A stretch of DNA of 27,647 nt from a virus (Duplodnaviria > Caudoviricetes). Positions 1-27,647 of the stretch are shown here, one piece after another. The position numbers were made by a program, and so were the translations under genes. The notes below the pieces were generated by a model. It saw only the letters and a list, made by a program, of their open reading frames with translations, had not been told where the DNA came from and searched no databases. Position 1 is the first letter of the stretch; each line of letters begins with the position of its first letter. The stretch spans positions 1 through 27,647 of IMG/VR virus record IMGVR_UViG_3300016464_000006, one strand, 5' to 3'.

Positions 1-1
1 C

Positions 2-511
2 TAGTGCGATGGCCTCGTCATATGGTTCGGAGTGAACAAGGATGTCTCGCTCATCTCCGTCACGAGGTATGGCTACTAGGTTGACGTTCTGGACCTTCCC
101 CAAGCCAGACTTGTCAATCAGATAACCATAGACTTGTACTTGCCAGCGTTGCTGTGCTGACGGAAAGTAAGAAAGGTTTTTTACTTTCGTAGTCTTCCAG
201 TCAACGACATCTCCTGTCCCAGGAATGAAGCAATCAACGTGTGCCTTCATACCGCCGTATTCGACAGTCTTCTCCAGAAGTACATCTTGATTGTTGGCAA
301 GCGCATTCTCTATTGCAGCGTGAATGGCAGTCCCCATAATCGCTGCGAGTTTTACCTCATTGTCATTGGTTTCAGGTTGATTATTCAACCGATACCACAC
401 CTTACGTCGACAGCCTCCAAGCTCTGATGGACCGATCTGAACCTGCGTGGACCTGCCGCGCTTGTTCTCTTTCTCGTGAAGAGCCTTTACAAGTAGTTCT
501 TTTATATCCAT
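2..511 (-). CDS. Cas4-like PD-(D/E)XK exonuclease (runs off the left edge)
   Basis: Not in the ORF track. Hand translation from ATG 511: MDIKELLVKALHEKENKRGRSTQVQIGPSELGGCRRKVWY...MGTAIHAAIE...AHVDCF...VVDWKT...QVQVYGY. Contains the PS...C, GT.IH, D...DxK and QxxxY motifs of Cas4/RecB-type nucleases. Confidence 0.85.
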   Translation of the reverse strand, partial: MDIKELLVKALHEKENKRGRSTQVQIGPSELGGCRRKVWYRLNNQPETNDNEVKLAAIMGTAIHAAIENALANNQDVLLEKTVEYGGMKAHVDCFIPGTGDVVDWKTTKVKNLSYFPSAQQRWQVQVYGYLIDKSGLGKVQNVNLVAIPRDGDERDILVHSEPYDEAIAL

Positions 512-690
512 CCGTTGCCCTGCCATCTAGTAAGAGTTATATTGAAGAATAGCAAATTGATTTGCAAAACTCTAGCCAGCATTCGTAATGGTTGGTAATC
601 ATAAATCTTGTAGTAATCAAGGCCGATGGACCAGTTATCTATATGGTGTGCGTTGATATGTAACGTCCACACTTTCCAATCTTTTCTCAC
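502..690 (-). CDS. Hypothetical protein, 62 aa
   Basis: GTGA overlap with the upstream gene; fills the gap in the operon. Confidence 0.6.
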   Translation of the reverse strand: MRKDWKVWTLHINAHHIDNWSIGLDYYKIYDYQPLRMLARVLQINLLFFNITLTRWQGNGWI

Positions 691-1253
691 GTTAGCTCCC
701 GTCTCTGAGTAACTAATTGAATCGGAGGGCAGGTATTGATGTCAAGCATTGAGGCAATCTCAACGGCACGTCGGGCGTGTTGCTCTACATTCCCCACAGT
801 GAGACGGCCCACGCGGTCATAAAGATAACCAAGAGCAAACTGCCCACCACTACCAAGTCCATAAATAGCGGAGTCCGATTGGATGAACGAGAGGTCTGTC
901 GCAATATGGAAGAGGTTGCCATCAAACGATACAAGGTAGTCGAACCCTGCATCTTTTTCTTTTGTCGCTTCGTACGGATCATATCCATTCTCCTTGAACG
1001 CCGTGAGTATAGATGGCAAGACTTTCTTACCCATCCACTGAATCGGGTTAGCACCCTTGTAGGTAGGCGGAGTCCAGTTGTAAGCAAGGATGTCACCAGG
1101 TCTGGTATCGCCTGTAATACCTAGCAGGTATTTACCAACGTGAATTATTTTCGGAGTGGCAGTACTAACAGTCCTGAGATTATCTTCAGTAATCTGACTA
1201 TCAGCAGCTAAGACAACTTGTTCATCAAGTTGGATTCCGATAAGTGTTGTCAT
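687..1253 (-). CDS. Proteasome beta-subunit/HslV-like Ntn-hydrolase
   Basis: Begins M-T-T (catalytic Thr1 after Met removal), then AADSQ, a conserved Lys (PKI), GITG and GSG followed by A-L-G. Confidence 0.85.
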   Translation of the reverse strand: MTTLIGIQLDEQVVLAADSQITEDNLRTVSTATPKIIHVGKYLLGITGDTRPGDILAYNWTPPTYKGANPIQWMGKKVLPSILTAFKENGYDPYEATKEKDAGFDYLVSFDGNLFHIATDLSFIQSDSAIYGLGSGGQFALGYLYDRVGRLTVGNVEQHARRAVEIASMLDINTCPPIQLVTQRRELT

Positions 1254-1314
1254 AGCGGAAGGTTACCTCTCATCGGCGTGTCGTCGCGGTAGCGACACAC
1301 CAGTTCATTACAAT
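1254..1314. promoter_or_regulatory. Divergent promoter region with inverted GACAC boxes; leftward promoter probably leaderless
   Basis: GGCGTGTCG (1275-1283) and CGACACACC (1293-1301). Minus-strand TAACCT at 1265-1260 lies 6 nt before ATG 1253. Plus-strand TACAAT at 1309-1314. Confidence 0.6.
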
Positions 1315-1369
1315 ATGAGCCGTCAGGCGAATTACAGTATGGCCCTCACGGGCCTGTGGAAGTGAGGCA

Positions 1370-1606
1370 ATGCTGTTCCGTCTACTTCGGCTGCTGAAAT
1401 ATAGCCAACAACTTCCTCCAATTCAAGCCTCTGATTTACGCGATGTAGGTCCAACCCACCAGTGTGTCTGCGGTTGTACAGTCTTCAACACCTATGTTCA
1501 GTTTGAGAACTACGAGATAGTTTGGTATGCTCTTGATGTCCAGTGCGCTAACTGCGGAAACCTACTCAAAGCTCCCTGTCCAATAGATAACCCAGAGATG
1601 CAATGA
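1370..1606 (+). CDS. Small zinc-ribbon protein
   Basis: CVCGC...CANCG...CP motifs; ATGA coupling to the next gene. Confidence 0.7.
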   Translation: MLFRLLRLLKYSQQLPPIQASDLRDVGPTHQCVCGCTVFNTYVQFENYEIVWYALDVQCANCGNLLKAPCPIDNPEMQ

Positions 1607-1986
1607 ACGAAAAAGAACTTTTTGATTATCTGAAAGACAGCAGATTCCCCGACCTAATCAAGAGTGAAGGAACCTTTGACTCCTTTGACTGCGTTTCTAA
1701 TGAGTTTGGTTTCTACATAGAACTCAAGTGCAGACATACCCATTACCCAGAACTACTGATAGAAAAATCTAAATACGACAGGCTCTTACTGGAGGCTAAA
1801 TACCGCAACCTTGAGCCTTGGTATATCAACTCCACTCCTGCTGGTAAATGGGCCTTTGATCTTTTCAAGGTCCCAGAACCTGCTTGGTCTGAGCGCTGGA
1901 TGCCAGCTACCACCGAGTTCAAAGATACCCGCAAGATACGCAAGGTTGTTGGGTTTATTCACACCGATTACGGAGTTTCTGTATAA
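1603..1986 (+). CDS. PD-(D/E)XK family nuclease (resolvase/restriction-endonuclease-like fold)
   Basis: N-terminal helix with E, followed by the FDC...IELKCR motif. Confidence 0.7.
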   Translation: MNEKELFDYLKDSRFPDLIKSEGTFDSFDCVSNEFGFYIELKCRHTHYPELLIEKSKYDRLLLEAKYRNLEPWYINSTPAGKWAFDLFKVPEPAWSERWMPATTEFKDTRKIRKVVGFIHTDYGVSV

Positions 1987-1990
1987 ATAC

Positions 1991-2028
1991 AAAAAGAGGC
2001 CCCATCACCTTTCGGTGACAGGGCCTTT
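1991..2028 (-). terminator. Intrinsic terminator of the late operon, possibly bidirectional
   Basis: Minus strand reads AGGCCC-tg-TCACC-GAAA-GGTGA-tg-GGGCCT-C-TTTTT, between convergent genes. Confidence 0.85.
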
Positions 2029-2050
2029 CCTCGCAGCGTTCTCTTACAAA

Positions 2051-2239
2051 CTACTTACTTCCGCGACCAAACTCTGTGGCCTTTGGATCTAGCCACTTCA
2101 ATACTGGTCCGAGGAATCCAGCTAGTGCTGCTGCTCCAAGTTTCTTTGGATCAGTCTCACCTGCTAGATACAACGCAACCGCAGCGGATGCTGCAGCGCG
2201 GAACCAGGATGCCGCCATTGCTTTGAACTTCTTGTCCAT
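2051..2239 (-). CDS. Putative holin
   Basis: 62 aa with two hydrophobic segments and a basic C-terminus; TAATG-coupled to the endolysin. Confidence 0.7.
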   Translation of the reverse strand: MDKKFKAMAASWFRAAASAAVALYLAGETDPKKLGAAALAGFLGPVLKWLDPKATEFGRGSK

Positions 2240-2721
2240 TAGTTCTCCTTTGGACTTGGTTTGTCTTTCTTCTTCGGCTTCTTCTGCATCTTGGCGTAAG
2301 CCAAGCGAGCAGCATCAACCGTATTCCATTTCGGTTTATCGAGCCAAGGAAACCAAGGGCTGGTGTCATTGGCACAATCTTCCTTGATGGAAATATGTAG
2401 ATGTTTGACGTGTTTATTTGGTCCTGTGTAATCGCGGTCACCGCGTTCTTTAGACCAGATACGTCCACTGAAAATTAGATATGAGACTCGCTTATCAGCC
2501 TTGAGTTTTTCATAGATGTCGCCACAGTCAATCCCATTATGCGGATCGTGGGTGAGGTCTACTGCCAACCCTGTGTTATGGTCAGAGTTAGGGTTTGCCT
2601 TGATGTGAGCCTTGCTTGGTAGGAGTCCATCCGATGCTTTCTTGCGTTTGGGAGCAAGCGCAGTTGCCTGCCGTAGAACGGCAATAGCAGCAGGTGTTGC
2701 ACGTTTTGCAACAGGTTTCAC
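2239..2721 (-). CDS. Putative endolysin, M15-like Zn peptidase
   Basis: SDH..G.AVD and H..H.H.S motifs; flanked by two membrane-protein genes at the end of the late operon. Confidence 0.7.
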   Translation of the reverse strand: MKPVAKRATPAAIAVLRQATALAPKRKKASDGLLPSKAHIKANPNSDHNTGLAVDLTHDPHNGIDCGDIYEKLKADKRVSYLIFSGRIWSKERGDRDYTGPNKHVKHLHISIKEDCANDTSPWFPWLDKPKWNTVDAARLAYAKMQKKPKKKDKPSPKEN

Positions 2722-2724
2722 GGG

Positions 2725-2928
2725 TCATCTCCTCAATGCTTCTTTGACTAACTCGGTGAGCAAATCTACTTTTTCTTCCAGAGCGTTTACCTTGTCCTTT
2801 AGAGAACTACCGCCATTAGGCTTGAGTTCATATAAGAATGACTTGACGAGCCAACGTAGGCCCATCACTAAGGTTGAGGCTATTCCAAGTATGGTGGCAA
2901 CAAGCATTGCCCAGTCTGCTAGTGTCAT
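2725..2928 (-). CDS. Single-TM membrane protein with coiled-coil tail (lysis accessory)
   Basis: N-terminal hydrophobic helix, then PNGGSSLKD and a heptad pattern. Confidence 0.7.
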   Translation of the reverse strand: MTLADWAMLVATILGIASTLVMGLRWLVKSFLYELKPNGGSSLKDKVNALEEKVDLLTELVKEALRR

Positions 2929-5139
2929 TTATACGCTCCGAATGGTGACGACCAAGGTTCCGCCAAAGCCTGAGAACCTCTTGTCTTGTGGTGTGCGGTT
3001 GATAAAGTCCATCTCTTCTATCAGGCCAATATAGGATTCTCCTGTTCGGAAGTCCTCTATTCGGATGGTATCGCCTGCGTTTTCTACTGCTTCAAGTTGT
3101 TGCATACGCTGCCAAGCAGAACCTTCAAACCCAACGGGTACTCCAAACTTATCTGCTTCTCTGTCATAGCAGAACAGTGGGTATTGGATAAGGCGTTGAC
3201 GTGGTACTGCTGGTAGAGACTTGAGTTGGTAACCAGTAAACAATGGACCCTTTGTATCATCAGTTGTTGATCTAGTCATTGTGAACTTGAACCCTAGATA
3301 TTCCTGTGGTCCGACTGGATATGGAATACCAATTTCAGAGATAGTTGATTGTTGCGAAAATGAACCAATCGGATACTCAGTGTAGTCGTAGGCCACAGAT
3401 GAGATGTCTAATCCACCATTAGTGGTATCAATACGTGGGGTAAGTAGTTTGAATATCTTACCTTCAAGTGTGTTGTAACGGACAAAGCCAGTTTGTAGTT
3501 CGCCCTGATATACAAGGCGACTATCTGATTCAATATAGACAGAACCATCGCTAGATGTGTAGTTGGTTGTAAAGGCGATACGTTCTGTGCCATCAATGAA
3601 AGCACAGGCAGTAGTCCTGCGACCAGTAATACGGCTGCCAGTTGACTCTGGGAAGTAGTATGTATCCCAGGCGTATGGGAAAATCAAGGTAGAAACCTGA
3701 GTTCCAAGGTCAATGCGGGTAGTTCCAGGAGCACCATCTACGTTAGTAGCACACCATACATACTTACCACGAGCAGCAAAGTCGTAGACTGGTTGCTCTG
3801 ATTCAAACAGTAGCGGTCCATAGGCTAGAGATCCATCGTCTGCCACTGCAGCGACTCGAACTCCAAGGCTGGTACCGATGAGCATATAACCAAGGTAGTA
3901 ATAGATACGGAAGATAAGTTCCCCGCTAGGCATTTCAGCAGCGGTGATAGCGCTGGTCAATGTAGGCATAGTTCCATTAGAAGCCAAGGTGAACTTCTGG
4001 ATATTGGATTGGCTACCTGAATAACCAGTCACATAGATAGCAGCGCCGCTTGATGTAATGCTGGTATAGGTAAAGTCATTGACTGGATGGGTATAGACAG
4101 CAGTAGGTAGAGCAGATGCTGTTGTTGAGATTTCATAAACTGCGTTATTGATACAGGCAACAATACGTTCCTTGGTGAACTCCATTACTGCATCTGTAAC
4201 CACAACCGATGATGTCTTCCACATCTGGGTGGCAGCATCAGCCTCAGTCTTGGTAAGTTCCTTCTTATACATCGCTGTCTTGATAACGCCAGCATCGTCA
4301 ATCTTGGTAATCCAGTAAGCGTAGACTCCATCGTCGCAATAGGCATAAACAGGGTAATCGGTCCCTGAGTTATAGTCTACGAAGTGGCATACATTGGTCG
4401 TTATCGTGCCTGTAGCAGCCGTAGAAGAGACGTTAGAAGCAGTCTTGGCATAGGACAAGGTAGTACTAGTAACAGCAGTAACGGTAAAGGTTCCATTGAA
4501 TGTGGCATCTACACCAGTAACTACAATCTCCATACCTACGGCTATACCGTGAGCAGCACTAGTTGTCAGTGTGGCTACATTGGAAGTCAGAGCCTTGTTA
4601 GTGACAGTTGCTGTAATAGTTGGATAGATTTTGTCTAGGTCATAACCATCGAGCATTAGGCAGCCGTCATAGGTGTTGCCATTCTGAGTCCACTTGATAG
4701 AACGTAGATACTGTCCTGGTCTGCCGTTGGAGCGCAGCGTTGTAGTCGTAACGTGGGTTGGGTCTACATCATAGATAAGACTGACTTGACCTTTAGTCCA
4801 AATATCACAACCTTTGGATTCGGTGTACTGAAAGCGCAGTGATTCATCCTGAGCTGGCTCAAAGTATTTGATGCCTTGGCCTAGATGGAATGATGACTGA
4901 CTACGGAACCACCAACCAGTCAGAGACTGCTCACCAGCTTCACGGGTCTGGTCATACTGTTGCTTACGGTACTGAGCCGTGACACGACGATAGGGTGAAT
5001 CATCGCTGGCTGCCAAAAAGAATGGCAAGCCGTTGATGGCTATATCGTAGGCAACACCTGTGGCTTGATAGTTAGTTGAGCCAGCAGGGTTTGAAAGGAC
5101 ATAGGGAATGCCTTCTGTAATATCGTCACCGTAGGACAA
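2929..5139 (-). CDS. Large beta-rich tail protein (nozzle/tubular protein B-like), 736 aa
   Basis: AAGGAG SD before a TTG start; beta-propeller-like composition; position just before the lysis genes. Confidence 0.6.
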   Translation of the reverse strand: MSYGDDITEGIPYVLSNPAGSTNYQATGVAYDIAINGLPFFLAASDDSPYRRVTAQYRKQQYDQTREAGEQSLTGWWFRSQSSFHLGQGIKYFEPAQDESLRFQYTESKGCDIWTKGQVSLIYDVDPTHVTTTTLRSNGRPGQYLRSIKWTQNGNTYDGCLMLDGYDLDKIYPTITATVTNKALTSNVATLTTSAAHGIAVGMEIVVTGVDATFNGTFTVTAVTSTTLSYAKTASNVSSTAATGTITTNVCHFVDYNSGTDYPVYAYCDDGVYAYWITKIDDAGVIKTAMYKKELTKTEADAATQMWKTSSVVVTDAVMEFTKERIVACINNAVYEISTTASALPTAVYTHPVNDFTYTSITSSGAAIYVTGYSGSQSNIQKFTLASNGTMPTLTSAITAAEMPSGELIFRIYYYLGYMLIGTSLGVRVAAVADDGSLAYGPLLFESEQPVYDFAARGKYVWCATNVDGAPGTTRIDLGTQVSTLIFPYAWDTYYFPESTGSRITGRRTTACAFIDGTERIAFTTNYTSSDGSVYIESDSRLVYQGELQTGFVRYNTLEGKIFKLLTPRIDTTNGGLDISSVAYDYTEYPIGSFSQQSTISEIGIPYPVGPQEYLGFKFTMTRSTTDDTKGPLFTGYQLKSLPAVPRQRLIQYPLFCYDREADKFGVPVGFEGSAWQRMQQLEAVENAGDTIRIEDFRTGESYIGLIEEMDFINRTPQDKRFSGFGGTLVVTIRSV

Positions 5140-5161
5140 CAGTCACTCCTTGCTTTTGTAT

Positions 5162-5284
5162 TTAGATTGAGGTCCAGCCTCGAATACTTCCACCCTCTAC
5201 AGGGCATTTGAAAGGCAAGTGTCTGCCTTCTGCTATCCATTGACGATGGGCTGCATTGATAGCAGCCCAATCAATGTCGTTCAT
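5162..5284 (-). CDS. Hypothetical 40-aa protein MNDIDWAAINAAHRQWIAEGRHLPFKCPVEGGSIRGWTSI
   Basis: Below the ORF-track cutoff; TAATG coupling with the upstream gene; fills the gap. Confidence 0.5.
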   Translation of the reverse strand: MNDIDWAAINAAHRQWIAEGRHLPFKCPVEGGSIRGWTSI

Positions 5285-5508
5285 TACTTACCTAGCGCTG
5301 CGATCTCTTCTGCGGTTAGACCGAGGGCAGCAAGTTTGGCTTCGGCTGCAGCCTTGGCTGCTGCCTTTGCTTCCTCTTGAGCGATGCGTTCTGCTTCTGC
5401 TACAGCAAATGCTGCTGCATCTGCTTCACGCTGGGCGATTTCTTCTGCGGTAAGTTCCACCTCTGTAGTAATCCCAGTGCTGCAATCAACGACGAGTTTG
5501 GTTGGCAT
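5284..5508 (-). CDS. Ala/Glu-rich helical protein (tail-associated hypothetical)
   Basis: GAAAGGA SD; 74 aa ORF directly after the tail-domain array. Confidence 0.75.
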   Translation of the reverse strand: MPTKLVVDCSTGITTEVELTAEEIAQREADAAAFAVAEAERIAQEEAKAAAKAAAEAKLAALGLTAEEIAALGK

Positions 5509-5520
5509 TGTTTTCCTTTC

Positions 5521-6039
5521 TTATGAGTTTTTGATTCCGTAAAGGGTTGCGGTTGAGTATTGGACGAAAGAACCTGTTGATTCGGGCAATACCAATAAAG
5601 AAGTAATTGCCGTTGAACTTGAATACAAACCAGCACTGAAAGCCAATCCTGCTTCAGTCGCATTGTTTTCACCAGCGCCATCTATGCTAATAGATTTGTT
5701 GTTTGAGCCAGCATAATTTGGTATATATACAGAAATATTACTAAACGTTGATGCAGTGGCATTTGCACCAGGAATAGTATGGTTGTTGTAAATGGCAGAG
5801 GCGTATGAGGATGAGCCAACAGATGAACCATCTGCATACAAGGTTATAGAACTTTGACTACTTGTGCCTGAGTTTATTCGCAATTCAAATGCTCTTTTTA
5901 CATTGGAAGCATTTGTCCTTACGGAAAACACTGCTAATAAATCAGTATAAGTTCCAGGAATACTTGTGAACTCTATATTTGCCGCCCCACCGCTACCCAC
6001 AGTTACAGTCGCTATTGCTACATAAGTTGGACTAGGCAT
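5521..6039 (-). CDS. Tail-associated beta-sandwich protein, paralog 3 of array
   Basis: Shares F(T/S)SIPGTYT.L and LYGI motifs with 6591-7070 and 7102-7665. Confidence 0.8.
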   Translation of the reverse strand: MPSPTYVAIATVTVGSGGAANIEFTSIPGTYTDLLAVFSVRTNASNVKRAFELRINSGTSSQSSITLYADGSSVGSSSYASAIYNNHTIPGANATASTFSNISVYIPNYAGSNNKSISIDGAGENNATEAGLAFSAGLYSSSTAITSLLVLPESTGSFVQYSTATLYGIKNS

Positions 6040-6581
6040 TACGCACCCGCTCTCTCTGCGTACTTAGCATTATTACGCTTATATGTTTCTTCATAACAAG
6101 TGGTGCAATATCTCACTGTTGTATATCCTGACTTCCGATTTTTATTTCTATATGTCCTACTTTTTATCTCAGAATTATGTCCGTTGTTACAAACAGATTT
6201 ATTATTCCAAGACCATTTAGCGCCAGCCTTGATATTATCTGACCTAGGAACTGCTCGTAGATGTTCTGGGTTTATACAGGCTCTGTGCTTGCAATCAGAA
6301 CCACCATCGCATTTGCCTTGAGATACTGCCTCATTGTGGCAGATATGGTCTATGTCGTAGCCGTATGGGATTGCTCCGTGATACCAAAGATATACAACTC
6401 TGTGACCTATTGCTGTAATTCGTTCACGTGGATTTTTGCCGCCATATGAAAACATTGCATATCCAGATGCTGTATTTCTTTTTTTGTAGATCATACAACC
6501 ATCTTCATCTTGAACCGCGTTCATAAGACCATAGGCGCAATGTTCCTGAGTGAATAACTTTTCGTTCAGGTTATTTGCCAT
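6039..6581 (-). CDS. Free-standing HNH (His-Me finger) homing endonuclease
   Basis: HRVVY...DIDHICHN...CINPEHLRAV...DN core, a C-terminal C..GH...C..C Zn-binding segment, and its own AGGAG SD. Confidence 0.9.
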   Translation of the reverse strand: MANNLNEKLFTQEHCAYGLMNAVQDEDGCMIYKKRNTASGYAMFSYGGKNPRERITAIGHRVVYLWYHGAIPYGYDIDHICHNEAVSQGKCDGGSDCKHRACINPEHLRAVPRSDNIKAGAKWSWNNKSVCNNGHNSEIKSRTYRNKNRKSGYTTVRYCTTCYEETYKRNNAKYAERAGA

Positions 6582-6590
6582 AGTATCTCC

Positions 6591-7070
6591 TTATGCCGCG
6601 GCAATGCCGTAGAGGGTGAAGGTTGAGCCTGAAACATAATTACCAGCGCCAGTATCTACTTTGATGGTAGTAATTGCAGCAGTTGAGCGCCACATATTTA
6701 TCCACGCCTCTGCGCTAGTTCCACTTTGTCTTGATAAAACTGTTTTGAATGTTGTGGTGTTTGCGTAATTCATTATGTGGGCAATGTTTGTCGCCCATTG
6801 AGACGAAGGTAAATTTCCAATATACATCGGTGTGGCATTAGAACCCCTACCTGATGAAGCAGATGTTCCATTACCTGATAAGTAAGTGTAAGAATAATTA
6901 GAACCAGTATCGTTATTCATTGTTAGACGGAAGTTATCTTGTGATGGCGTATTTTGTCCAACCAAAATGAGAACCAAATCTGTATAAGTTCCAGGAATGC
7001 TAGAAAATGTGACACTGGATTGATTACTACTTAGCGTTGTTGTTGCAATCGGTTCGTATGTGGCTGCCAT
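6591..7070 (-). CDS. Tail-associated beta-sandwich protein, paralog 2 of array
   Basis: TYEPIAT...FSSIPGTYTDL...YANTTTFKT...TLYGI. Confidence 0.8.
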   Translation of the reverse strand: MAATYEPIATTTLSSNQSSVTFSSIPGTYTDLVLILVGQNTPSQDNFRLTMNNDTGSNYSYTYLSGNGTSASSGRGSNATPMYIGNLPSSQWATNIAHIMNYANTTTFKTVLSRQSGTSAEAWINMWRSTAAITTIKVDTGAGNYVSGSTFTLYGIAAA

Positions 7071-7102
7071 TACGCACCTGCCTTTGTAAAGTTAGTTGTC
7101 AT
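7070..7102 (-). CDS. 10-aa mini-ORF MTTNFTKAGA, translationally coupled at both ends
   Basis: TA-ATG ACA ACT AAC TTT ACA AAG GCA GGT GCG TAA-TG exactly fills the gap with TAATG overlaps on both sides. Confidence 0.55.
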   Translation of the reverse strand: MTTNFTKAGA

Positions 7103-7665
7103 TATGCGCTCTTGATTCCGTATAGGGCGAATTGGGTATATTGAGAAAAACTATCGCCGTTTCCAGTTATGTCAATTTGAGTAACCGCATTTGTATTCAT
7201 CCATAAACCTGAACCATAACGAATTTTACCCGACCCATTATTGTCATAACCATTCATTGCTCGTAAAGTTTTATATTTATTGGTATTGGCATAGTCCAAA
7301 ATGTCCCAAATTTGTACACCAAAGACATTTGCTGATTGGCTAGATGTTGCAGTTGCAAACGGATTCATTTGACCTTGTGACGCAGCACCGTAAGCACTTA
7401 CGCTTGAACCATCTCCATCAATCTGATGAAGTGCGTAGTTACTACCTGTATCGGAATTGAAACGTACAAATATTCCATCGCCGCCACCTGCACTACTTTT
7501 ACGACTTATTGCTCTAATTTGTAGATGCGTGTAAGTTCCAGGTATAGAACTAAAGGTGATTGTTGAACTTCCGCCTGAACCTACGGACACAGTTGAAATA
7601 GACTCAAAGGAAGTACTAGAAACGTTGGCTGCTGAAGCAAAGATACCAAGAGATATAGGTGTCAC
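7102..7665 (-). CDS. Tail-associated beta-sandwich protein, paralog 1 of array
   Basis: Start revised to GTG 7665 (GTGA overlap). FESIST...FSSIPGTYTHL...YANTNKYKT...ALYGI. Confidence 0.8.
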   Translation of the reverse strand: MTPISLGIFASAANVSSTSFESISTVSVGSGGSSTITFSSIPGTYTHLQIRAISRKSSAGGGDGIFVRFNSDTGSNYALHQIDGDGSSVSAYGAASQGQMNPFATATSSQSANVFGVQIWDILDYANTNKYKTLRAMNGYDNNGSGKIRYGSGLWMNTNAVTQIDITGNGDSFSQYTQFALYGIKSA

Positions 7666-8015
7666 GCTGACAAGTCTCCTATCAGAACCCAAGTGTTAGT
7701 GTCACGCTTGACGATAGTCGCAGCAGACCACTGTGCTCGAAGTTTCAACCCTGGAGTTCCATTGACTGTCACTGTTGCAGCACCTGCCACAGTCACCTGA
7801 CCTGCGCCAGTCTGCAAGATGTTGATTTGTGAGCCGACAGGAAATGCGGTAGTCGCATTTGTCGGTACAGTTAGGGTAATGGCTGAAGCGTTGTTGAGTT
7901 CAACCATAGTGTTATTTGAATCTGTCAATACGATGGTATAGGTAGTTCCAGTCTGGGCATTAGTTGTATATGCCGTAGATGGACTTACTGTTCCACCAAT
8001 AATTGCTACGCTCAT
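7662..8015 (-). CDS. Tail fibre-associated domain protein
   Basis: NAQTGTTYT...IGDLSA domain, duplicated from the C-terminus of 8335-9168. Confidence 0.75.
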   Translation of the reverse strand: MSVAIIGGTVSPSTAYTTNAQTGTTYTIVLTDSNNTMVELNNASAITLTVPTNATTAFPVGSQINILQTGAGQVTVAGAATVTVNGTPGLKLRAQWSAATIVKRDTNTWVLIGDLSA

Positions 8016-9168: not shown

Positions 9169-9177
9169 GGGCCTTCC

Positions 9178-17012: not shown

Positions 17013-17132
17013 AGGTCCTTCTCCCTTTATTAGTTGGTTTCGCAGGCCTCATATAGAATTGGGGATTTTCTATATGGCTCCTACTGCTGGTATTTATATC
17101 TCTCTAACGGGCCAGTCGTTCCGTTAGCAGGC
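17013..17132 (-). ncRNA. Candidate structured cis-regulatory RNA leader of the scaffold-capsid genes
   Basis: Hairpin CTAACGG/CCGTTAG, then a bulged hairpin GTAG-GA-GCC-ATATAGAA/TTCTATAT-GA-GGC-CTGC with an AATCCCCAA loop. Confidence 0.5.
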
Positions 17133-18452: not shown

Positions 18453-18454
18453 TA

Positions 18455-19858: not shown

Positions 19859-19870
19859 GTGTATCTCCTA

Positions 19871-22800
19871 TTAGTCTCTGATAAGTCTTGAGAATAGAGC
19901 AAAGTACGCATCTTGTGCATTACGGTTTGTCTTGGACAAACGCTCTAGTTCTGCCTTAGCCTGTTGCTTGAGTAAGTCTTTATAGTTCTCTGCTGAGATA
20001 CTATTGCCATATACCGAGTCACGGGCATTGATGTACTGGTTATAGACATCCAACATACCTTGAATTGGTTGGCGAATCTTTGAATCAAGTTTGACATTTT
20101 TATCTGAAAGCATATCTTGTAAATCGCGTAGAGCGATATTGCGCTGGATAGCCCGTTCTGCTCCCTTGCCAAGTTCTTCTTGCAAGTTAGGACGTGCCTT
20201 TTTGAATGATTCAGACCAGCGTGACCACTGTTCTTTCAACTGACGCTTGGCATAATCATTGTATGTATTGGCTAGTTCTGCCTCATACTGATCCTGCTGG
20301 TCGTAGTAGAAGTTTTCATCAAAGGCTGTATTGACTTCCCGCAGGTAATCTTCCATAGTCTTTGAACGCTTCAAGCCCATTGTCATTAGTATCTTGTAGG
20401 CATCAAAATCAAATTCGCCTTCCTTCGGAATAAAGAAGGATGCGGCCTCTGGATATTTCTTGAGTAGACCTTGGTTCTTGTCAATCCATTCATTAGCCTT
20501 CTTATTAGCGCTAAGAATTGCGACAACATTGCTTTCAGACTCAGATATTGTATAAGGCATCTGATCTGGGAATAGACGAATCCATTCCTTCATCGCGGTG
20601 TCATAATCGCCTGTCTTTTCAACAAGGTTATTCCACGTCTGCTTGAAGTTTGTCTGACCATTCTGGCGTACCCACTGAGCAATCTCGGACTTGAGAGTTG
20701 TTTGTGGTGGCGCAGGTACGATAAATCCAAGTATGAAACGCAGAGCCAGCGCTGTAAATGTAGAAGCCTTGAGTTTCTCTTGATACTGCTCAAGTTCTCC
20801 TGGTGTAATCGGAATCTCTTGACCAGTTACAGGGTCAATCTTTGGCTTGAGTCCGTGACCTGTAGCCTCAAGATACGACGCTGCCTTGCGGAATGCTGAT
20901 GCGAACTGAGAGTTGCGCTCGTTCTTATCCATCAACGCAAGGAATCTGTTGAAGTGCGCTGGGAAGATTGCCTGAACAATCGGTTGATCTTCACCGTATT
21001 GACCTAAGAATACTCGCTCTAACTTCTCTAGCGGTGGTACTAGGGCAAAGATTGCCTTCATTGATAAAGCAGATACAGGACCTGCGAAAGTTGGGAAAAG
21101 TGAATCTGGGTTAGATGATGGTGTAATCATCTTCAACTTAGCGGAAAACTCAATCGGCATTGGAGCCTTGACTGCTTCTTCCTGACCAAAAGCACGCATT
21201 ACCTTCTCTACACTCTGGTACATAGCAGTTGTGCCAGGGTAGAAGAAGTACTGTTCGCCAGTATCGTCTGTCTGCACTAAGCCAGAGTGTGCAATACCGT
21301 CATAAGTCAACGATGCACGCGTAATAGCCTCTGGGTTGTAGCGTACTGTGCGATAGAAACGACGATAAAAGTCTTCAGTTGCTCGATAGAAACGAGCAAA
21401 GTTACGACCAGTCAAAGCGAGTTGGGTACGAACTGCTGGGTTATCTAGGAAAGCAAGTGCGCTGTCCTTAGCCAAGTCCTCAGCCATTGTGTTGATATGG
21501 CGTTGTGCTGCTCTGTAGGCAAGTTCATATGCTTCATCTGTCTTACCAGCGGTAAATTGACTGATTACCTTCTGACTAAAGCCTGACTTATCTAGTTCTT
21601 TACGGAAGCGAATCAATTCATTGATAACGATTGGCTCACGTGACCAACGAGCGTTGGCTTCTCCCATAGCATCCCAGCCCTTTTCATACAAGGCTGCGAC
21701 AAAGTTATCTGATTCTGCTACTGGAACTAACGTTGGTCCAGATATAAACTCTGGCGCTAACTTAGGATCATCTGGCAAGTCAACAAGTTTGAGTTCTTTT
21801 GCAGATACTGAAACATATCCGCTTCTATCGGTCTTCTTTACTTTATCAAGAAGGTCTTGATTGATATTACCCTTCCTATCAGAGAATAAATTACGTACTG
21901 CAATGTACGCACGTTGAGCGTGAACTCGCTCATCTACACCCTTTGAGTAGAGTTGGAATCTCTTCTTCTCTTGCTCAGGTAAATTCTTGAGGAATTTAGC
22001 CATCTCATCAACGGCTGTGACATCATCTTCAAGGTTCTTGATAGCAATGCGACCTAAATCATCATTAGCCATAACACCAAGTTGGAATAACCAACTTACC
22101 TTGGATTGCTCACTAGCAACTGGGTTGAATTGAGTAAAGGCCTTGTCCCCGACAGAGCGCTTATAGGCTTTACCATCAATGGTAATTGCTTCCATCTTTC
22201 CAAAACGAGATACATCATCTGCTACATTGGAATAACGGCTATTGCCACGAGCGGCATTCTTAGCACCTTCTGATACATCAGCAAGGAGTGAATCTAAGTC
22301 ACCATATTTGGCTACATCAGCAACAATCTTGGCTGACTCTTCATCTAACTTGTAGGCTAGTTTACGGCGAAGAACTGCTTCTGCCATAACAGCACGAACT
22401 GCGTTTTCATTAGGAGCTACAGCCATCTTTTTTGCGAACTCTTCTAGTTCGTCAGCTTTGAGAAACTTATTGATAGCACCAAGTTCACCTTGGTTGCTGT
22501 TGATAAAAACTGTGTCTTTGAGTTTTTGCAGTGCAGTATCTTCACCTGCTACGCCTCTACCTGTACGAATACGTGTTGACCAAAGACGACCTCTGACCAT
22601 ATCCCAAGGATTACGACCACGTGCTAAGAAGAACATATCGTCTTCAATGGTGTTACGGATAGCAAAGCGTGGACCTGCAAGGGTCAAGAATGACCAACCA
22701 GATGTAATTTGGTCTACCCACTTGTTATGCGATAATCCAACAAGTTTGGAAACCAAGCCCTGACGTGCAGTAAGTCTGTCAAGATCTACCACCGATGGAA

Positions 22801-24547
22801 TGACCATTGATGATGACAACTGATATGGGAACAAAGCCATCTGTTCACCAGCAAATTCAGCAGGGTTTCCTACGCGGTTACCATCTACAACGATGTCTGC
22901 AGCGTAGCGCTTTTCCAAACCGCGACCTGCGAACTGCTCCATAAAGGTTTTACCTGGGTCACCTTTGCGAACACCACGAGTTGAGAAGATAGTATTCCAA
23001 AGTCCCTTGGTAATCTGAATACGCTGACCTTCATCACCAGCGGCAAATGCCTCAGCAATAATCTTGCTATGGTAACGAGAGTTAGTCAAGCGTGCTGTAC
23101 GGTAAATCTGGTCAACAGCATCTGGTGCTGATGTATCAAAAACCGTAGCAGTTGGGTTAGGAACCTTTGTAAACTTGCGAGCAAAGCGATCAATACGGCC
23201 TTGAATCTGGTTAGCAGAGAAACGAACTACTCCATCTGGACCCTTGAGCCTGCCAACTTTCTTTTCTAAAGCAGCAATATCTTCAGCACGAGTAGTGATA
23301 CCAGTGAGAATATCTTCGTATTGTGGGCCAGTTCCATATAAAGCAGATACAAGTTTCTGACCTACATTGTCAATGTTGAGAACCTTGTTACCAGCAGTTA
23401 GTGCTGCGATACGAGCCTTACGTCCTGCTGTCATACGTGGAATCAAAGGAGTCTCACGGGCTGCTTGGCCCTTGAGAATGTTTATCATATCAACGCTATT
23501 TTGGAAATAGTTTTTTGCAGTAATAGCGTCTTTTACGCCAGCCTTTGTAAACTCTTCAATAGCGGCAGTACCAAACTCTGGGGCAATACGACGAAGCATT
23601 GTGGAAGCCTTCTCAGCTTCAACGATATTCTTAGCCTTACGAGCCTTATCAAGGTTATCTAGTTCTTTACCATAAGCATTGAAGAAGTTGACAACCTTTG
23701 GATTAGCAAAAGCCTCGTCTACCTTCTTGGTAGAACCAGCAATCTTGATGATGGAATAGTTGGCAGCATCGTATGCTTTCTTGGCTTTGCCAAGTGCAAG
23801 GGTCGGATCTACAAAGAGACGATAGGTAGCATCGCCAATACCAGAGATTCCTTTGTAAAGAATGCCTGAACCTTCCAAACCTTCTGGAAGAAATGTGTTT
23901 GCTATCTGACGACCTGGTGAATACTTAGCAGCAAAGACTGCATCGTAGGCATCTTGCCACAATGGGTCTTTCTTTTGTGCTGCAAGAGATGCAATTTCTT
24001 TTTCTTCAGGTGTTCCAGTAGCAATAATGTCTGCAAGGTCACGACCTTGAGATACTTGCTGTGCTAACTTGACGCGAGTCGGGCCATATTTAGCAGTTGC
24101 TTTAGAGATTCTAGTCTCATTGTAAAGAAGTTCGCCATTATCGTTGGACTTATCCCACGCTTGGGTAAGAATCTTGACCTTATCTGCAGGTGTCTTACTG
24201 AAATCAGGTCTGAAATAGCCTGCTTCGTTAGCAAGTGCGCCTGTTCGATACAAGCGGGTCATAAAATCTGATACTTCAGTCAGCGCATTGACTACCTGAC
24301 CACCTGTATAGTGCCACGCAGTACCGAGCCAGCCACGCTTTTGTGGTTCTGGGTTAGTGCCGAAGGTAGTCTTGAGAGTTTCCTGCTGATCTGCAGGTAA
24401 AGATTGGAACTTGATGCGTGCTTCATTGGCAGGCATATCAAGCAAACTTTTATGTGTGCTAACTAACTTAGATATTGCTCCTACTTTTTCTTTATCAGTA
24501 GAAGATAATCCAGCTTGAGCAGATGCAATCTTGAGATTTTTCTCCAC
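19871..24547 (-). CDS. Very large helical protein, putative internal virion/DNA ejection protein, 1558 aa
   Basis: Long ORF of mostly helical composition; no catalytic motif recognised. Confidence 0.55.
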   Translation of the reverse strand: MEKNLKIASAQAGLSSTDKEKVGAISKLVSTHKSLLDMPANEARIKFQSLPADQQETLKTTFGTNPEPQKRGWLGTAWHYTGGQVVNALTEVSDFMTRLYRTGALANEAGYFRPDFSKTPADKVKILTQAWDKSNDNGELLYNETRISKATAKYGPTRVKLAQQVSQGRDLADIIATGTPEEKEIASLAAQKKDPLWQDAYDAVFAAKYSPGRQIANTFLPEGLEGSGILYKGISGIGDATYRLFVDPTLALGKAKKAYDAANYSIIKIAGSTKKVDEAFANPKVVNFFNAYGKELDNLDKARKAKNIVEAEKASTMLRRIAPEFGTAAIEEFTKAGVKDAITAKNYFQNSVDMINILKGQAARETPLIPRMTAGRKARIAALTAGNKVLNIDNVGQKLVSALYGTGPQYEDILTGITTRAEDIAALEKKVGRLKGPDGVVRFSANQIQGRIDRFARKFTKVPNPTATVFDTSAPDAVDQIYRTARLTNSRYHSKIIAEAFAAGDEGQRIQITKGLWNTIFSTRGVRKGDPGKTFMEQFAGRGLEKRYAADIVVDGNRVGNPAEFAGEQMALFPYQLSSSMVIPSVVDLDRLTARQGLVSKLVGLSHNKWVDQITSGWSFLTLAGPRFAIRNTIEDDMFFLARGRNPWDMVRGRLWSTRIRTGRGVAGEDTALQKLKDTVFINSNQGELGAINKFLKADELEEFAKKMAVAPNENAVRAVMAEAVLRRKLAYKLDEESAKIVADVAKYGDLDSLLADVSEGAKNAARGNSRYSNVADDVSRFGKMEAITIDGKAYKRSVGDKAFTQFNPVASEQSKVSWLFQLGVMANDDLGRIAIKNLEDDVTAVDEMAKFLKNLPEQEKKRFQLYSKGVDERVHAQRAYIAVRNLFSDRKGNINQDLLDKVKKTDRSGYVSVSAKELKLVDLPDDPKLAPEFISGPTLVPVAESDNFVAALYEKGWDAMGEANARWSREPIVINELIRFRKELDKSGFSQKVISQFTAGKTDEAYELAYRAAQRHINTMAEDLAKDSALAFLDNPAVRTQLALTGRNFARFYRATEDFYRRFYRTVRYNPEAITRASLTYDGIAHSGLVQTDDTGEQYFFYPGTTAMYQSVEKVMRAFGQEEAVKAPMPIEFSAKLKMITPSSNPDSLFPTFAGPVSALSMKAIFALVPPLEKLERVFLGQYGEDQPIVQAIFPAHFNRFLALMDKNERNSQFASAFRKAASYLEATGHGLKPKIDPVTGQEIPITPGELEQYQEKLKASTFTALALRFILGFIVPAPPQTTLKSEIAQWVRQNGQTNFKQTWNNLVEKTGDYDTAMKEWIRLFPDQMPYTISESESNVVAILSANKKANEWIDKNQGLLKKYPEAASFFIPKEGEFDFDAYKILMTMGLKRSKTMEDYLREVNTAFDENFYYDQQDQYEAELANTYNDYAKRQLKEQWSRWSESFKKARPNLQEELGKGAERAIQRNIALRDLQDMLSDKNVKLDSKIRQPIQGMLDVYNQYINARDSVYGNSISAENYKDLLKQQAKAELERLSKTNRNAQDAYFALFSRLIRD

Positions 24548-24954
24548 TACAAACCTCGCGCTACGAAGTCCTGATACAGAACTGCAATCTCTCCAGATTC
24601 ATCATATGGCAATAACTTAGCCAAGGTATCTGAATACTTTTCAACTGGAGCTGGACGCATACCAAGAACTTCTGGACCTGGGCCAGGTCCCATTGCAATA
24701 CCTGAAGTGATTGGTTCATCTGGGCGCTGGCTTGGTGCATACAATGGTGTTACTGGTTCTAGTTGGCTTGGTGCCATACCTTGTTCACTAAGTGATGTAG
24801 GACGGACATCAGCGGTCTTAGCAAGTGGAGCGCCTTGTTTGATAGCGGCTTGCTCTACACCTGCACCATAAGAATCTGATTGAAACTCTAATCCATCGGT
24901 TCTTGTGGAGAACTTGCCTGGACCTGCTGGGCCTGCGAGTGGTCCTCTAGCCAT
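24547..24954 (-). CDS. Pro/Gly-rich hypothetical protein (GPGKFSTRTD; RPDEPITSG...GPGPGPE)
   Basis: GGAGG SD; follows the portal region. Confidence 0.75.
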   Translation of the reverse strand: MARGPLAGPAGPGKFSTRTDGLEFQSDSYGAGVEQAAIKQGAPLAKTADVRPTSLSEQGMAPSQLEPVTPLYAPSQRPDEPITSGIAMGPGPGPEVLGMRPAPVEKYSDTLAKLLPYDESGEIAVLYQDFVARGL

Positions 24955-25165
24955 TGTTGTCCTCCATCTTCTCTAAATCTGATGTGAATTGTTCCCATAC
25001 TCTGGAAACTTTTGTTTTTCTATTTGCGTTATACACTGCTAAATCTAATAATTCTGAAGTGAGCATCTCTATGGCTCTAACTATGTTTACTGCGAATCCT
25101 GATATAACTACTAAGAAATCTGCGAAAGTGACAGAACGTGGTACATAGTCTTTATCTTCGTCCAC
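24947..25165 (-). CDS. Hypothetical protein with hydrophobic helix
   Basis: Start revised to GTG 25165 (GAAAGGA SD). Confidence 0.65.
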   Translation of the reverse strand: MDEDKDYVPRSVTFADFLVVISGFAVNIVRAIEMLTSELLDLAVYNANRKTKVSRVWEQFTSDLEKMEDNNG

Positions 25166-25186
25166 GCTCTGTCCTTTCAAATAACA

Positions 25187-25318
25187 CTAAGCCTTCTTGC
25201 CTTTACGTGCGGCTGGAGCATAACCAAACTTGACATCTGCCATTTTTGGTTTCTTGGTATCCATTTTGCCCTTTGTTGGCTGTTGCATTGGAGCCTTTTC
25301 ACGACCACCTTTTTTCAT
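25187..25318 (-). CDS. Lys-rich 43-aa protein MKKGGREKAPMQQPTKGKMDTKKPKMADVKFGYAPAARKGKKA
   Basis: Strong GGAGGTG SD immediately after the portal stop codon. Confidence 0.75.
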   Translation of the reverse strand: MKKGGREKAPMQQPTKGKMDTKKPKMADVKFGYAPAARKGKKA

Positions 25319-25330
25319 ATTACACCTCCC

Positions 25331-27058
25331 TTACCCTGCAATAGATGCGAGTAACGACGCTATATCTGGACGAGCGCCAGCAGCAGGGGCCGCACCCATT
25401 TGTTCTGGAGTTGGCTGCGAGGCAGGAACGGGGGCCATACCTGCTGCTGGAACTTGTTCGCCCATTGGCATTTCTGGTTGTGGTTCTGGTGTAAACACCT
25501 TCTCCACGATACTTTCTAGCGCTAAACCTTTTTGACGACCTTTGATTACTTCGGCGATTCTGGAAACGATTTGAGAAGGATCTTGACCTTGTGCTGCAAG
25601 CGCAGGAATAGCCTGGGCATACTGAGCAACAGCAACGCGAAGAGAATCGCGCATCTCTTCAATATCCACACGCTGTTCTTCTTGAGTGACATTGAGTTCC
25701 ATCGGTATCTCGCGGCGTACATAGTCGCGGCTTACAAGTTTATCGCTACGCATCTGTAGCAAAGCAATGATGGCATTGTTTGGATTCATTCCAGACATAA
25801 TGCCGTAACGAACATCTACTCCATACTCACCAGCAATAGCCTTGCTTGGTATGTACTTCATATTGAACGGTGTTCCGTCGTCTACGCCCTTGATTTCCTT
25901 GGTCATAGATCCGAAAATCTTCTCGTCTACTTCAAAGCAGATTGAGACAAGTTCAGTAAACAGGCGTGCAAACTGTGCTTGTGCTGCACGAACCTGTGTA
26001 TCAAAGCCTGCTTGAAGTGCTTGAACTCCACGACCTGTGATGATAGAAGCATCAACGTTACCGCTACGTACTTCTGGGTAACGAGCACCAAGACGAAGTT
26101 CACGCTCTAGTACGCCAGACTCAGTAAATACTCCAGGAGGTAGTTCTAGCGGTACGCGCCGAATTGCTTGAGGGTTAGCAGAGCGCATAATGGAGTCAGG
26201 GCCAAGTGCGAGTTCTTGGACATCCTGCGGAATAGCAATCGGTGCTTGAATAGATTTCTCTGCTGCTTGAATCTGTAACACAGCAAAGCGAGCACGTGCT
26301 AGTTGTACCGCTAGAATATCATCGAACTGACCGCGTGCTTCTCCATCAAGAGATGAACGAACAGCAACACGAGCCAAGCATTTACCAACAGGATTAGGAA
26401 TGTTGGATAGAACTAGGTTGTTGCGTTCTGGAATGAAGATGAGATCTTGGTCTTTGTCGTGGTAACGAACCATTGTGACTGCTTGTGCGCCAGATGCCAA
26501 TGGCATACGTGGCATAATCTGTGAAGCAAACTCTGGATACTGTGATGCCAAAGTCTCAGCATCGGTAATAGTTACTTGAGTGATAGAGATACAACGACCG
26601 AATCTGTCAATCTCTGGGTAAACACCAAATGGATTGAGCAGGCGGATACGTGGATTGTTGCTTTCGTAATCCATCTCCACCATTGCTGGGAGCATTCCAT
26701 AAGTGTTGAACCAGTCAGCACCGTTGTACATTTGAATCTGTAGTTCAGAACCTGCGACGTAATAGTTGGCAATGCGGGTTCTAGTATCTGCGGCCTTGCG
26801 TGCACTGTCTGAAACCATATTGGTAGCAGCGCAGTTGAACGAAGGAAGCGGTGCCATAACCTCAGCGAGGTCACGTGCTGCTACATCTACGAAGTTAGCA
26901 ACCAGAGGCTTGGGGTATTCCTCAGAGAACATCGCAGGATAGACCTTGCTAATGTCTCCTTGACGTACTGATAGCACGTCACGCATACGTTGATCTCTAG
27001 CAGCATAGCGGGTCTGTAGACGCGCTACCTTAGAAATCACATCCTTGGTTGATAACAT
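25331..27058 (-). CDS. Portal protein
   Basis: 575 aa after the terminase; portal-like helical/beta organisation with a disordered Pro/Ala tail. Confidence 0.85.
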   Translation of the reverse strand: MLSTKDVISKVARLQTRYAARDQRMRDVLSVRQGDISKVYPAMFSEEYPKPLVANFVDVAARDLAEVMAPLPSFNCAATNMVSDSARKAADTRTRIANYYVAGSELQIQMYNGADWFNTYGMLPAMVEMDYESNNPRIRLLNPFGVYPEIDRFGRCISITQVTITDAETLASQYPEFASQIMPRMPLASGAQAVTMVRYHDKDQDLIFIPERNNLVLSNIPNPVGKCLARVAVRSSLDGEARGQFDDILAVQLARARFAVLQIQAAEKSIQAPIAIPQDVQELALGPDSIMRSANPQAIRRVPLELPPGVFTESGVLERELRLGARYPEVRSGNVDASIITGRGVQALQAGFDTQVRAAQAQFARLFTELVSICFEVDEKIFGSMTKEIKGVDDGTPFNMKYIPSKAIAGEYGVDVRYGIMSGMNPNNAIIALLQMRSDKLVSRDYVRREIPMELNVTQEEQRVDIEEMRDSLRVAVAQYAQAIPALAAQGQDPSQIVSRIAEVIKGRQKGLALESIVEKVFTPEPQPEMPMGEQVPAAGMAPVPASQPTPEQMGAAPAAGARPDIASLLASIAG

Positions 27059-27064
27059 TTGTCC

Positions 27065-27214
27065 CTACTTCTTCTTGACCTTGATTACTGGCTTCTTCTT
27101 GAAGCCTGGGATTCCAACATCGCTGTCGCCAGGATATTTTTTATTCTTAGATGGCAGAGTCTTGCCCTTCATAATTGCTGCGTCTAGCGCATTCATTTTC
27201 TTTTTTGCTGCCAT
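27065..27214 (-). CDS. Lys-rich 49-aa protein MAAKKKMNALDAAIMKGKTLPSKNKKYPGDSDVGIPGFKKKPVIKVKKK
   Basis: TAATG coupling to the terminase stop; fills the terminase-portal gap. Confidence 0.65.
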   Translation of the reverse strand: MAAKKKMNALDAAIMKGKTLPSKNKKYPGDSDVGIPGFKKKPVIKVKKK

Positions 27215-27645
27215 TAGATGAACTGCCTTTCCTGTTCGGCTAGTAAATTATCAATGTTGATAACTGTTCTCTTGCCACGCTCATAGCGGGACAAAAATGG
27301 ATTCTTCATATGGTGCGTAGTGTGAATACCTTGGTTGAGCCATTCACGTACTTTGATTTCACAGAACCACAGAGCCATCACCATATCGGTTTTGCCCTTG
27401 GTCGTCGGTGACCAAGTAATCAACTGCTCAATAAGGCTCTTGATATTTTCTGTCTGGTCAGATGGAAGATGAATCAGATTATCTCTGTGATGCTTTCCAT
27501 CAGGTTGTTTAGTTCCAAAGAGGGTGGACATAGAAGCCACACCAAAGCCTGCATCCCACTTGTTATTACCAGTGTGGTGCTCTCTTAGGATAGTTCCCTT
27601 GGAAGCGAGGAACTGCCTAATTCCCTCATCTTGCGTGAGAAAAGA
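27214..27645 (-). CDS. terL: Terminase large subunit, C-terminal nuclease part (starts beyond the right edge)
   Basis: Frame is open to the window edge (SFLTQDEGIRQF...HHTGNNKWD...GVASM...LIEQLITW.P...TDMVMALWF); upstream of the portal. Confidence 0.85.
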   Translation of the reverse strand, partial: SFLTQDEGIRQFLASKGTILREHHTGNNKWDAGFGVASMSTLFGTKQPDGKHHRDNLIHLPSDQTENIKSLIEQLITWSPTTKGKTDMVMALWFCEIKVREWLNQGIHTTHHMKNPFLSRYERGKRTVINIDNLLAEQERQFI

Positions 27646-27647
27646 TT

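Follow-up and report, generated by a model that had tools for sequence, protein, structure and literature searches.

Loss of four-base palindromes in aquatic phage genomes follows small swappable genes that may encode site-specific nucleases

Why would a phage genome lose a four-base palindrome altogether? The question is raised by a 27,647-base stretch of the Caudoviricetes record IMGVR_UViG_3300016464_000006, analysed here over its whole length (the window), in which TTAA, CATG and CCGG occur 0/0/0 times, and by a small gene within it, N2, whose presence predicts the loss of CATG in other phages as well. The initial annotation had found this absence by eye, and exact counting bears it out: among the 256 tetramers, only these three have a zero count. 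Base composition would give 143/106/78 copies (TTAA/CATG/CCGG, the order used throughout), a Markov model on 3-mers 71/87/30, and permutation of synonymous codons within 32 genes (25,389 coding bases, 300 shuffles) a mean of 85.8/40.5/50.8, with minima of 70/26/32. Since these shuffle expectations face zero observed copies, codon or dicodon bias was ruled out as the cause, and the absence stands against each null model, although the original expectation of about 100 copies of each word is too high for CCGG and CATG under the codon-aware null. Inside genes, 0/128 Met codons are preceded by C. The variable modules share the purge as proposed, with no copies in the AT-rich block 5284-8015 (18.5/10.1/5.5 expected) or in the HNH gene (4.1/1.8/0.8 expected). 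GATC is indeed reduced yet present (42 observed, 129 expected); the similar depletion of AGCT (27/139, observed/expected here and below) and TCGA (23/60) had been overlooked, as had the even spacing of the GATC sites. Several 6-bp palindromes, including GATATC (0/11.5), GAATTC (0/5.2) and GCTAGC (0/5.9), are also missing. An assembly or library artefact was excluded because the same word states turn up repeatedly, both across 80 loci in 28 clusters and among cultured phages, as described below.

Among relatives of the window, two slots, one next to a sigma-like gene, the other following a small cysteine-rich open reading frame (ORF), hold one of four unannotated genes of 125-180 amino acids (aa), N1-N4, which are swapped from genome to genome. 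Dam-like, C5, N4/N6 methylase or Mom-like genes are sometimes added. Among the 23 genomes with an N gene, N2 is present in 17, including the window, N1 in four, and N3 and N4 in one each, so that N2 is absent from 6/23 slot-covering genomes; two further contigs do not include the slot. In the relative G002, N4 occupies the cysteine-rich-ORF slot, where the window has N2. GATC is nearly gone from 4/4 near-whole genomes with N1 (0, 0, 3 and 8 sites, the three in G004 all lying inside its first 350 bases) and from 0/19 genomes carrying N2, N3 or N4. Because of this match, loci were fetched with each gene and their words counted.

The reference for these counts was a set of 80 loci fetched with the capsid protein, which form 28 clusters at 10% shared 16-mers. 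GATC was purged in 80/80 N1 loci (17 clusters; 1 site seen versus 3445 expected), compared with 9/80 in the capsid-selected set, and most of the N1 loci come from phage groups that keep CATG. AGCT was purged in 78/80 N3 loci (16 clusters) compared with 14/80, and TTAA in 14/15 viral N4 loci compared with 10/80. Metagenome loci with N4 had no TTAA in 20/22 cases, including a 20-kb locus with TTAA 0/132 and CCGG 18/45. For N2, the absence of CATG from 31/31 close loci carries little weight because the whole family is without CATG. A broad alignment therefore supplied 80 further loci (41 clusters, GC 34-49%) whose N2 proteins share 39-68% identity with that of the window, about eight of them belonging to the window's own family. 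With CATG scored as purged at 6% of expectation or less, it was purged in 78/79 scorable loci of this broad set (2 seen versus 2073 expected), and each of the other 15 palindromes was purged in at most 20 loci. The association is one-way: the gene predicts the purge, and the purge does not predict the gene.

The specificity of this link is most evident outside the family. In 28 loci (L346-L373) related to the siphophage contig L345, CATG is the sole word lost. In one distant group, CATG is absent from five N2 loci and kept in six mates without an intact N2. Furthermore, CATG persists (73/64, 74/78, 31/25 and 30/25) beside four N2-like copies that are without the ExK lysine. The degenerate N2-like proteins of L164, L317, L319 and L322, which have an acidic extension at the C terminus and no catalytic lysine, could be inhibitors or DNA mimics. 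Small contigs with N2 assigned to metagenome-assembled genomes (MAGs) lacked CATG in 3/4 cases; the N2 contigs L342-L345 were binned in Gammaproteobacteria, Campylobacterota and Chitinophagaceae MAGs, and L345 is probably a mis-binned siphophage fragment. The N2 family comprises at least 1,484 proteins, and its synonymous sites are saturated at 67-74% protein identity, so that the gene is under purifying selection. In four RNA libraries, searched as contigs only, a single related piece of 155 bases lay over N2. N1 corresponds to PHROG 13596, a family of unknown function.

Cultured phages allow the comparison to be made within one host strain. GenBank has 43 records with N1 homologues (30-47%), most of them pelagiphages. 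GATC is absent from 7/7 carriers fetched from these 43 (86-157 sites expected, two genomes being counted over the first 50 kb), and 5/5 fetched relatives missing from both N1 hit lists keep it (60-182 sites). On host FZCC0023, the N1 carrier CRP-143 has GATC 0/145, and CRP-118, CRP-114 and CRP-171 have 182, 123 and 82 sites; on host HTCC7211, HTVC103P has 0/150, in contrast to 100/113 in HTVC119P. In HTVC019P-type pelagiphages, the N1 homologue (AGE60597.1 in HTVC019P) stands right after the DNA polymerase gene, and in HTVC011P it is unannotated at 13771-14106. The cultured marine phages L428-L433 and L439 are also without CCWGG and further words. The Planktophila phages E7 and F5 carry an N2 homologue (46.5%) and lack CATG, GATC, AGCT, CCGG and GGCC. 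A term search of the gene table of their host LanE-43, in an incomplete supplement, returned no four-base-cutter pair; it did return one large YeeA-type methylase gene and one McrA-like HNH gene. N3 had no match in GenBank phages.

What kind of protein is N2? Its model is confident (predicted local distance difference test score, pLDDT, 90.8) and shows a minimal PD-(D/E)XK fold. The structural matches are Hjc (Z 11.8, root-mean-square deviation 2.5, 98 aligned), NhoI (Z 7.0) and DpnI (Z 6.2); Foldseek also returned Hjc (E 7.8e-4), and in the matching Atlas cluster (score 0.97) 47% of the members carry PF24579 PDDEXK_14. The residues D29, E40 and K42, which form a D-x(10)-E-x-K motif, do not vary in either of two alignments (20 and 9 sequences). 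In model and alignments alike, N2 therefore has what a restriction endonuclease should have, a nuclease fold with intact catalytic residues. We predict that it is a CATG-specific endonuclease, the specificity being taken from its genomic link to CATG loss. At the sequence level, N2 had no match in Pfam, PHROG, PADLOC or PDB, and N1 had none in Pfam, PADLOC or PDB; restriction enzymes diverge past sequence detection. The N1 model has a pLDDT of 78.8, with Atlas leads to PD-(D/E)XK families at scores below 0.9; in N3 and N4, D...E/D-x-K/R motifs can be made out by eye.

A Type II restriction-modification system would also include a linked cognate methyltransferase, and this was not found. None of the 33 ORFs scanned in the incomplete window encodes a recognisable DNA methylase. 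The scan of the relatives took in 140/214 family representatives, the remainder being mostly shadow frames and fragments of the genome G008. Dam-like and C5 methylase families occur in some relatives only, and many carriers of an N gene show no DNA methylase; in records at least 90% complete, PF02086 was found in 0/5 and PF01555 in 0/16, and three methylase queries matched neither E7 nor F5. A phage methylase as the factor behind the word states was considered and rejected, with D12-type Dam in 0/5, an N6/N4 methylase in 2/31 and the others patchy. N4/N6, C5, Dam-like (PF05869) methylase or Mom-like genes occupy the N slot itself in L249 (3094-3801) and six related loci, in L492 and in L102 (10851-11309). 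Because the purged word stays purged beside such genes, they may protect other words.

The losses themselves form a mosaic. In the capsid-selected loci, word loss is all-or-none and the lost subset differs between loci (CATG 79/80, CCGG 39/73, AGCT 14/80, TTAA 10/80, TCGA 10/80, GATC 9/80), and 24 near-whole genomes give the same picture. The initial annotation had suggested that the missing words could serve as a host fingerprint. This does not hold, since relatives with a 99%-identical major capsid protein differ in TTAA: the window has none, versus 47/78 around the capsid gene of G001. When the sites of relatives were aligned to the window, 82/169 TTAA and 34/50 CCGG had been lost without amino-acid change. 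Other words are affected elsewhere. CCSGG is absent (11-18 expected) from G005, G010, G020, G022, G024 and G027, where CCGG is at normal levels, and CGCG with TCGA, AATT, GTAC with TGCA, CTAG, ACGT and GGCC are purged among L073-L076, L286, L314 and L385-L414, so that additional cassette genes may exist. L459 has no N gene in 15.6 kb, with CATG 23/64, TTAA 15/52 and CCGG 8/21, and looks like a purge decaying once the enzyme was lost. In G008 (L096-L097), most long genes are fragmented and CATG and GATC occur in scattered copies, probably through sequencing errors.

From the zero counts, the gene-to-word associations, the exchange of genes in the slots, the confidently modelled fold of N2 and the inconsistent presence of methylases, we propose that the N genes are probably four-base cutters aimed at host DNA and rival phages, in genomes that are themselves siteless. 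N2 would be the phage's own CATG cutter, one of a swappable set of 125-180-aa proteins, each directed at one four-base palindrome, and the phage would protect itself by the absence of the target word rather than by methylation. The N proteins would cut DNA at their words in the host chromosome and in co-infecting phages. On this proposal, N2 would explain the loss of CATG from the window. The loss of TTAA probably derives from an N4 carried now or recently by the lineage, because G002 holds N4 in the same slot and about 13 kb are missing from the window. The loss of CCGG is likely the mark of another enzyme, of phage or host, for which no gene was found. Purges would outlast the gene, so that lost words accumulate. 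Purges without a gene would fit past cassette swaps and protection from the enzymes of neighbours, and would agree equally with an earlier clearing of the words by host enzymes.

Several observations weigh against this proposal. The best fold match of N2 is a junction resolvase and not a restriction enzyme, and the fold match of N1 is weak, the best being PvuII at Z 4.3. CATG is gone from 79/80 family loci regardless of which N gene is present; G016, G021 and the window lack TTAA and no N4 was found in them; and E7 and F5 carry N2 as their only N gene, yet five words are missing. Conversely, some carriers keep the word, namely L343 with N2 and 9 CATG in 2.7 kb, L372 with N2 and CATG 2/19, L290 with N3 and AGCT 10/27, and L525 with N4 and TTAA 5/19. 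Three N1 loci are contigs of the discovery genomes that had been used to spot the pattern. The N4 loci fall in 5 clusters only, nearly all of the window's family, and three of the metagenome loci repeat viral contigs. Among the cultured phages, the isolation host is not the evolutionary host, and N1 carriers and non-carriers are different lineages. Finally, no gene tracks CCGG, TCGA, GGCC or ACGT beyond lineage markers; for CCGG, none emerged from 269 small-protein families of 337 loci or from the post-sigma slot of 80 loci, a screen of mostly N1-N4-selected loci from which rarer genes could escape.

The initial annotation attributed the missing words to restriction by the host. The part of this reading that holds is selection against four-base restriction-type sites; a host-encoded cause is not the most likely one for CATG and TTAA, since these losses, like those of GATC and AGCT in relatives, follow single phage genes, phages of the same strain differ in GATC with gene carriage, and LanE-43 has no four-base-cutter pair in the searches made. 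Taken on its own, host restriction would require MseI-, NlaIII- and HpaII-type host systems, with the small phage genes as mere markers of lineage or host. Virulent double-stranded DNA phages commonly avoid the Type II sites of their hosts, according to PMC6286503, and no phage gene was found for CCGG; methylation of TTAA, GATC and AGCT is known from lakes, though the microbes concerned are Chloroflexi and Thaumarchaeota (PMC6329791). We nevertheless regard this explanation as very improbable, because the gene-to-word match spans unrelated phage types and hosts, because catalytically degenerate N2 copies lose the link to CATG, and because phages of one host are split by the gene. For CCGG and the purges without a gene, a host cause may still apply.

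Host restriction could also have acted first, purging words from genomes in which the N genes, as selfish or accessory nucleases with the same specificities as proposed above, later settled because the sites were already gone. Purges do exist without the gene, a genome with about 100 sites could hardly take up a cutter without a methylase, and the methylase and Mom-like genes in the same slot fit pressure from foreign restriction. Against this order of events, same-strain non-carriers keep GATC, N2's word alone is lost in L346-L373, the terms searched in LanE-43 gave no four-base-cutter pair, and seven Lake Biwa Actinobacteria bins (17-77% complete) had 0 methylated motifs and 0 methylases (PMC6329791). 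Such genes are, however, mobile and may be missed in bins (PMC9426551). We consider this sequence of events unlikely, though less so than host restriction alone. The remaining possibility is that the N proteins resemble DpnI and cut only the host-methylated form of the word, which the phage erases to escape. This makes the same prediction about purges, and among restriction enzymes DpnI and NhoI come closest to N2 in fold; their Z scores, however, lie within the range of a common arrangement, and neither LanE-43 nor the Lake Biwa bins showed the host CATG or GATC methylases that would be required. We judge it the least probable of the three.

The GATC sites that survive in the window suggest a further agent. 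The gaps between them average about 650 bp and have a coefficient of variation (CV) of 0.61, compared with 0.98 under random placement (p=0.0002; GATC was one of 13 words tested for spacing in the window). In cluster representatives, GATC has the lowest mean CV of the 136 canonical tetramers (0.69; 13/20 at p<0.05). Three GATC states were observed, namely none, about 1.3-2.2 per kb with even spacing, and 2.3-5.8 per kb with mostly random spacing; even spacing is common to most sparse-GATC relatives and to a separate N2 group (L374-L384, mean CV 0.54). The observed-to-expected ratio (O/E), taken as GATC usage at synonymous-eligible positions, was 0.14, 0.20, 0.33, 0.47, 0.97, 1.11 and 1.30 with increasing distance to the nearest GATC (0-100 to >700 bp) in 12 sparse genomes, a label that was set after viewing densities and that omits two borderline genomes. 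Four dense genomes had a mean O/E of 1.21 and no rise with distance. AGCT was flat at about 0.3 in the sparse genomes and rose more weakly in the dense ones.

GATC pairs within about 450 bp are thus depleted, and the rise of O/E with distance indicates that close pairs are costly while isolated sites look neutral, a distance-dependent cost such as two-site (Type IIE/IIF) restriction would impose. A longer word underlying the spacing was excluded, as the flanks show no preference beyond the level of the dense genomes. In cluster representatives, a 114-bp GATC pair in the capsid gene region accounts for 13 gaps, contrary to the general repulsion. A different agent, one that requires two sites no more than about 450 bp apart, has probably shaped the GATC sites that survive. 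For Sau3AI and ten further DNA-looping enzymes, PMC1474071 puts the most probable loop sizes at <75 to about 500 bp, and the loop range of such two-site enzymes (Sau3AI, EcoRII) matches the range of pair depletion. The likeness lies in this range alone; no enzyme of this kind was recognised in the phage genomes or identified for a host. Alternatively, the phage might need coverage, of the order of one GATC per 1.2 kb, with the cost falling on single sites and not on close pairs. Few gaps exceed 1200 bp, retention goes up as sites become more isolated (from 0.39 to 0.55), and the coverage fit is slightly better than exponential repulsion (1237.8 versus 1244.8). However, this fit is algebraically equal to linear repulsion with a 600 bp range, isolated sites have an O/E of 0.97-1.30, near the 1.21 of the dense genomes, GATC is not retained in excess of control words, and N1 carriers live with no GATC. 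Coverage is therefore a possible but doubtful explanation; the repulsion would rather be the mark of an agent acting on two sites, seen genome-wide and resolved by distance.

How do the N genes relate to known systems? Type IIP enzymes recognise the same kind of word (NlaIII, CATG; MseI, TTAA; Sau3AI and MboI, GATC; AluI, AGCT). The N genes share with them palindromic 4-bp words and, for N2, the PD-(D/E)XK fold and the D-x(10)-E-x-K motif; they differ in being 125-180 aa long and phage-borne, in having no linked cognate methylase, and in their lack of Pfam, PADLOC or PDB matches. Hjc, the best structural match of N2, is structure-specific, and archaeal Hjc and PDDEXK_14 are the nearest named Atlas clusters; in contrast, N2 is swappable and word-linked, and the core genes of the window's family separately include a RusA/Hjc-like one (PHROG 244). 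T4 endonucleases II and IV are phage nucleases that act against host DNA, with T4 DNA spared by a modified base. The likeness is that phage DNA is spared, here through a sequence purge. CviAII of a Chlorella virus has the site CATG, and Chlorella virus restriction enzymes have a role in host DNA breakdown. Like the N genes, by prediction, they are virus-encoded four-base cutters, with protection by a methylase there and apparently by absence of the site here. PMC4081073 describes this pairing of restriction enzyme and methylase in Chlorella viruses, and Type II endonuclease genes as rarely found on phages. Site avoidance in phages has been paired with host-encoded enzymes (Rusinov et al. 2018, PMC6286503); the all-or-none loss of short palindromes, mostly by silent change, in virulent double-stranded DNA phages is the same here, but in the present case it is a phage gene that predicts the loss, and the phages of one strain are not alike in it. 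Within the literature covered, which leaves out most subscription journals, there were no methylase-free phage four-base cutters with purged sites and no evenly spaced phage GATC. What the present analysis adds is the swappable set with four predicted specificities, the controls outside the family and within the same host, and the cultured systems.

The window represents about 28 kb of the approximately 40 kb genome of a freshwater actinophage, its missing part being deduced from complete relatives of about 40 kb with additional genes. These add terminase, primase, helicase, WhiB, a sigma-70-like gene and a resolvase-like gene. Besides the features in the table, the window encodes a collagen tail fibre, two glycosyltransferases and an HslV-like peptidase. 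The sigma-factor slot, which holds N1, N2 or N3 and methylases in relatives, lies beyond the window edge past the Cas4/RecE-like gene. The nearest cultured relatives are the Planktophila phages E7 and F5 (described in PMC10202952), and this kinship together with WhiB suggests an acI-type actinobacterial host.

Table. Coordinates of the features considered in the 27,647-base window.
Feature	Position	Strand	Remarks
Cas4/RecE-like exonuclease	2..526	-	cut by window edge
Conserved 78-aa cysteine-rich ORF	1370..1606	+	in 23/25 genomes; stop overlaps N2 start; marks cassette slot
N2, 127-aa PD-(D/E)XK-fold protein, predicted CATG endonuclease	1603..1986	+	D29, E40, K42 invariant
GC-rich hairpin and A-run, terminator-like by eye	1991..2030		between N2 and converging gene
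HNH endonuclease gene	6039..6581	-	within AT-rich variable block; without TTAA, CATG, CCGG
Major capsid protein	15579..16514	-	~50% identity to Planktophila phages E7/F5, 44-47% to Streptomyces phages
Portal protein	25331..27058	-	52% identity to Planktophila phages E7/F5
42 GATC sites	434..26995		evenly spaced

An oddity of composition has thus led to four predictions that tie a gene to a word. For two of the genes, cultured phage-host pairs exist, with N2 in Planktophila E7/F5 and N1 in HTVC019P, HMO-2011 and CRP-143. More tentatively than for the N genes themselves, with the chances slightly against so general a form, phages of acI, SAR11, SAR116 and Roseobacter could share a pool of interchangeable, methylase-free four-base cutters of 125-180 aa, whose carriers erase their own word and cut the host and co-infecting phages, driving other phages to purge or space their sites. 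In that general form, the specificity of each uncharacterised enzyme could be read directly from the missing word, and much of the site avoidance in aquatic phages would record attack between phages and by phages on their hosts, not host defence. The four predictions would by themselves give a function to large unannotated families (N2, N1) and supply candidates for restriction enzymes of very small size. They would also explain deep purges where streamlined hosts seem to be without matching systems, and would reverse the usual view that avoided palindromes are a fingerprint of the host.

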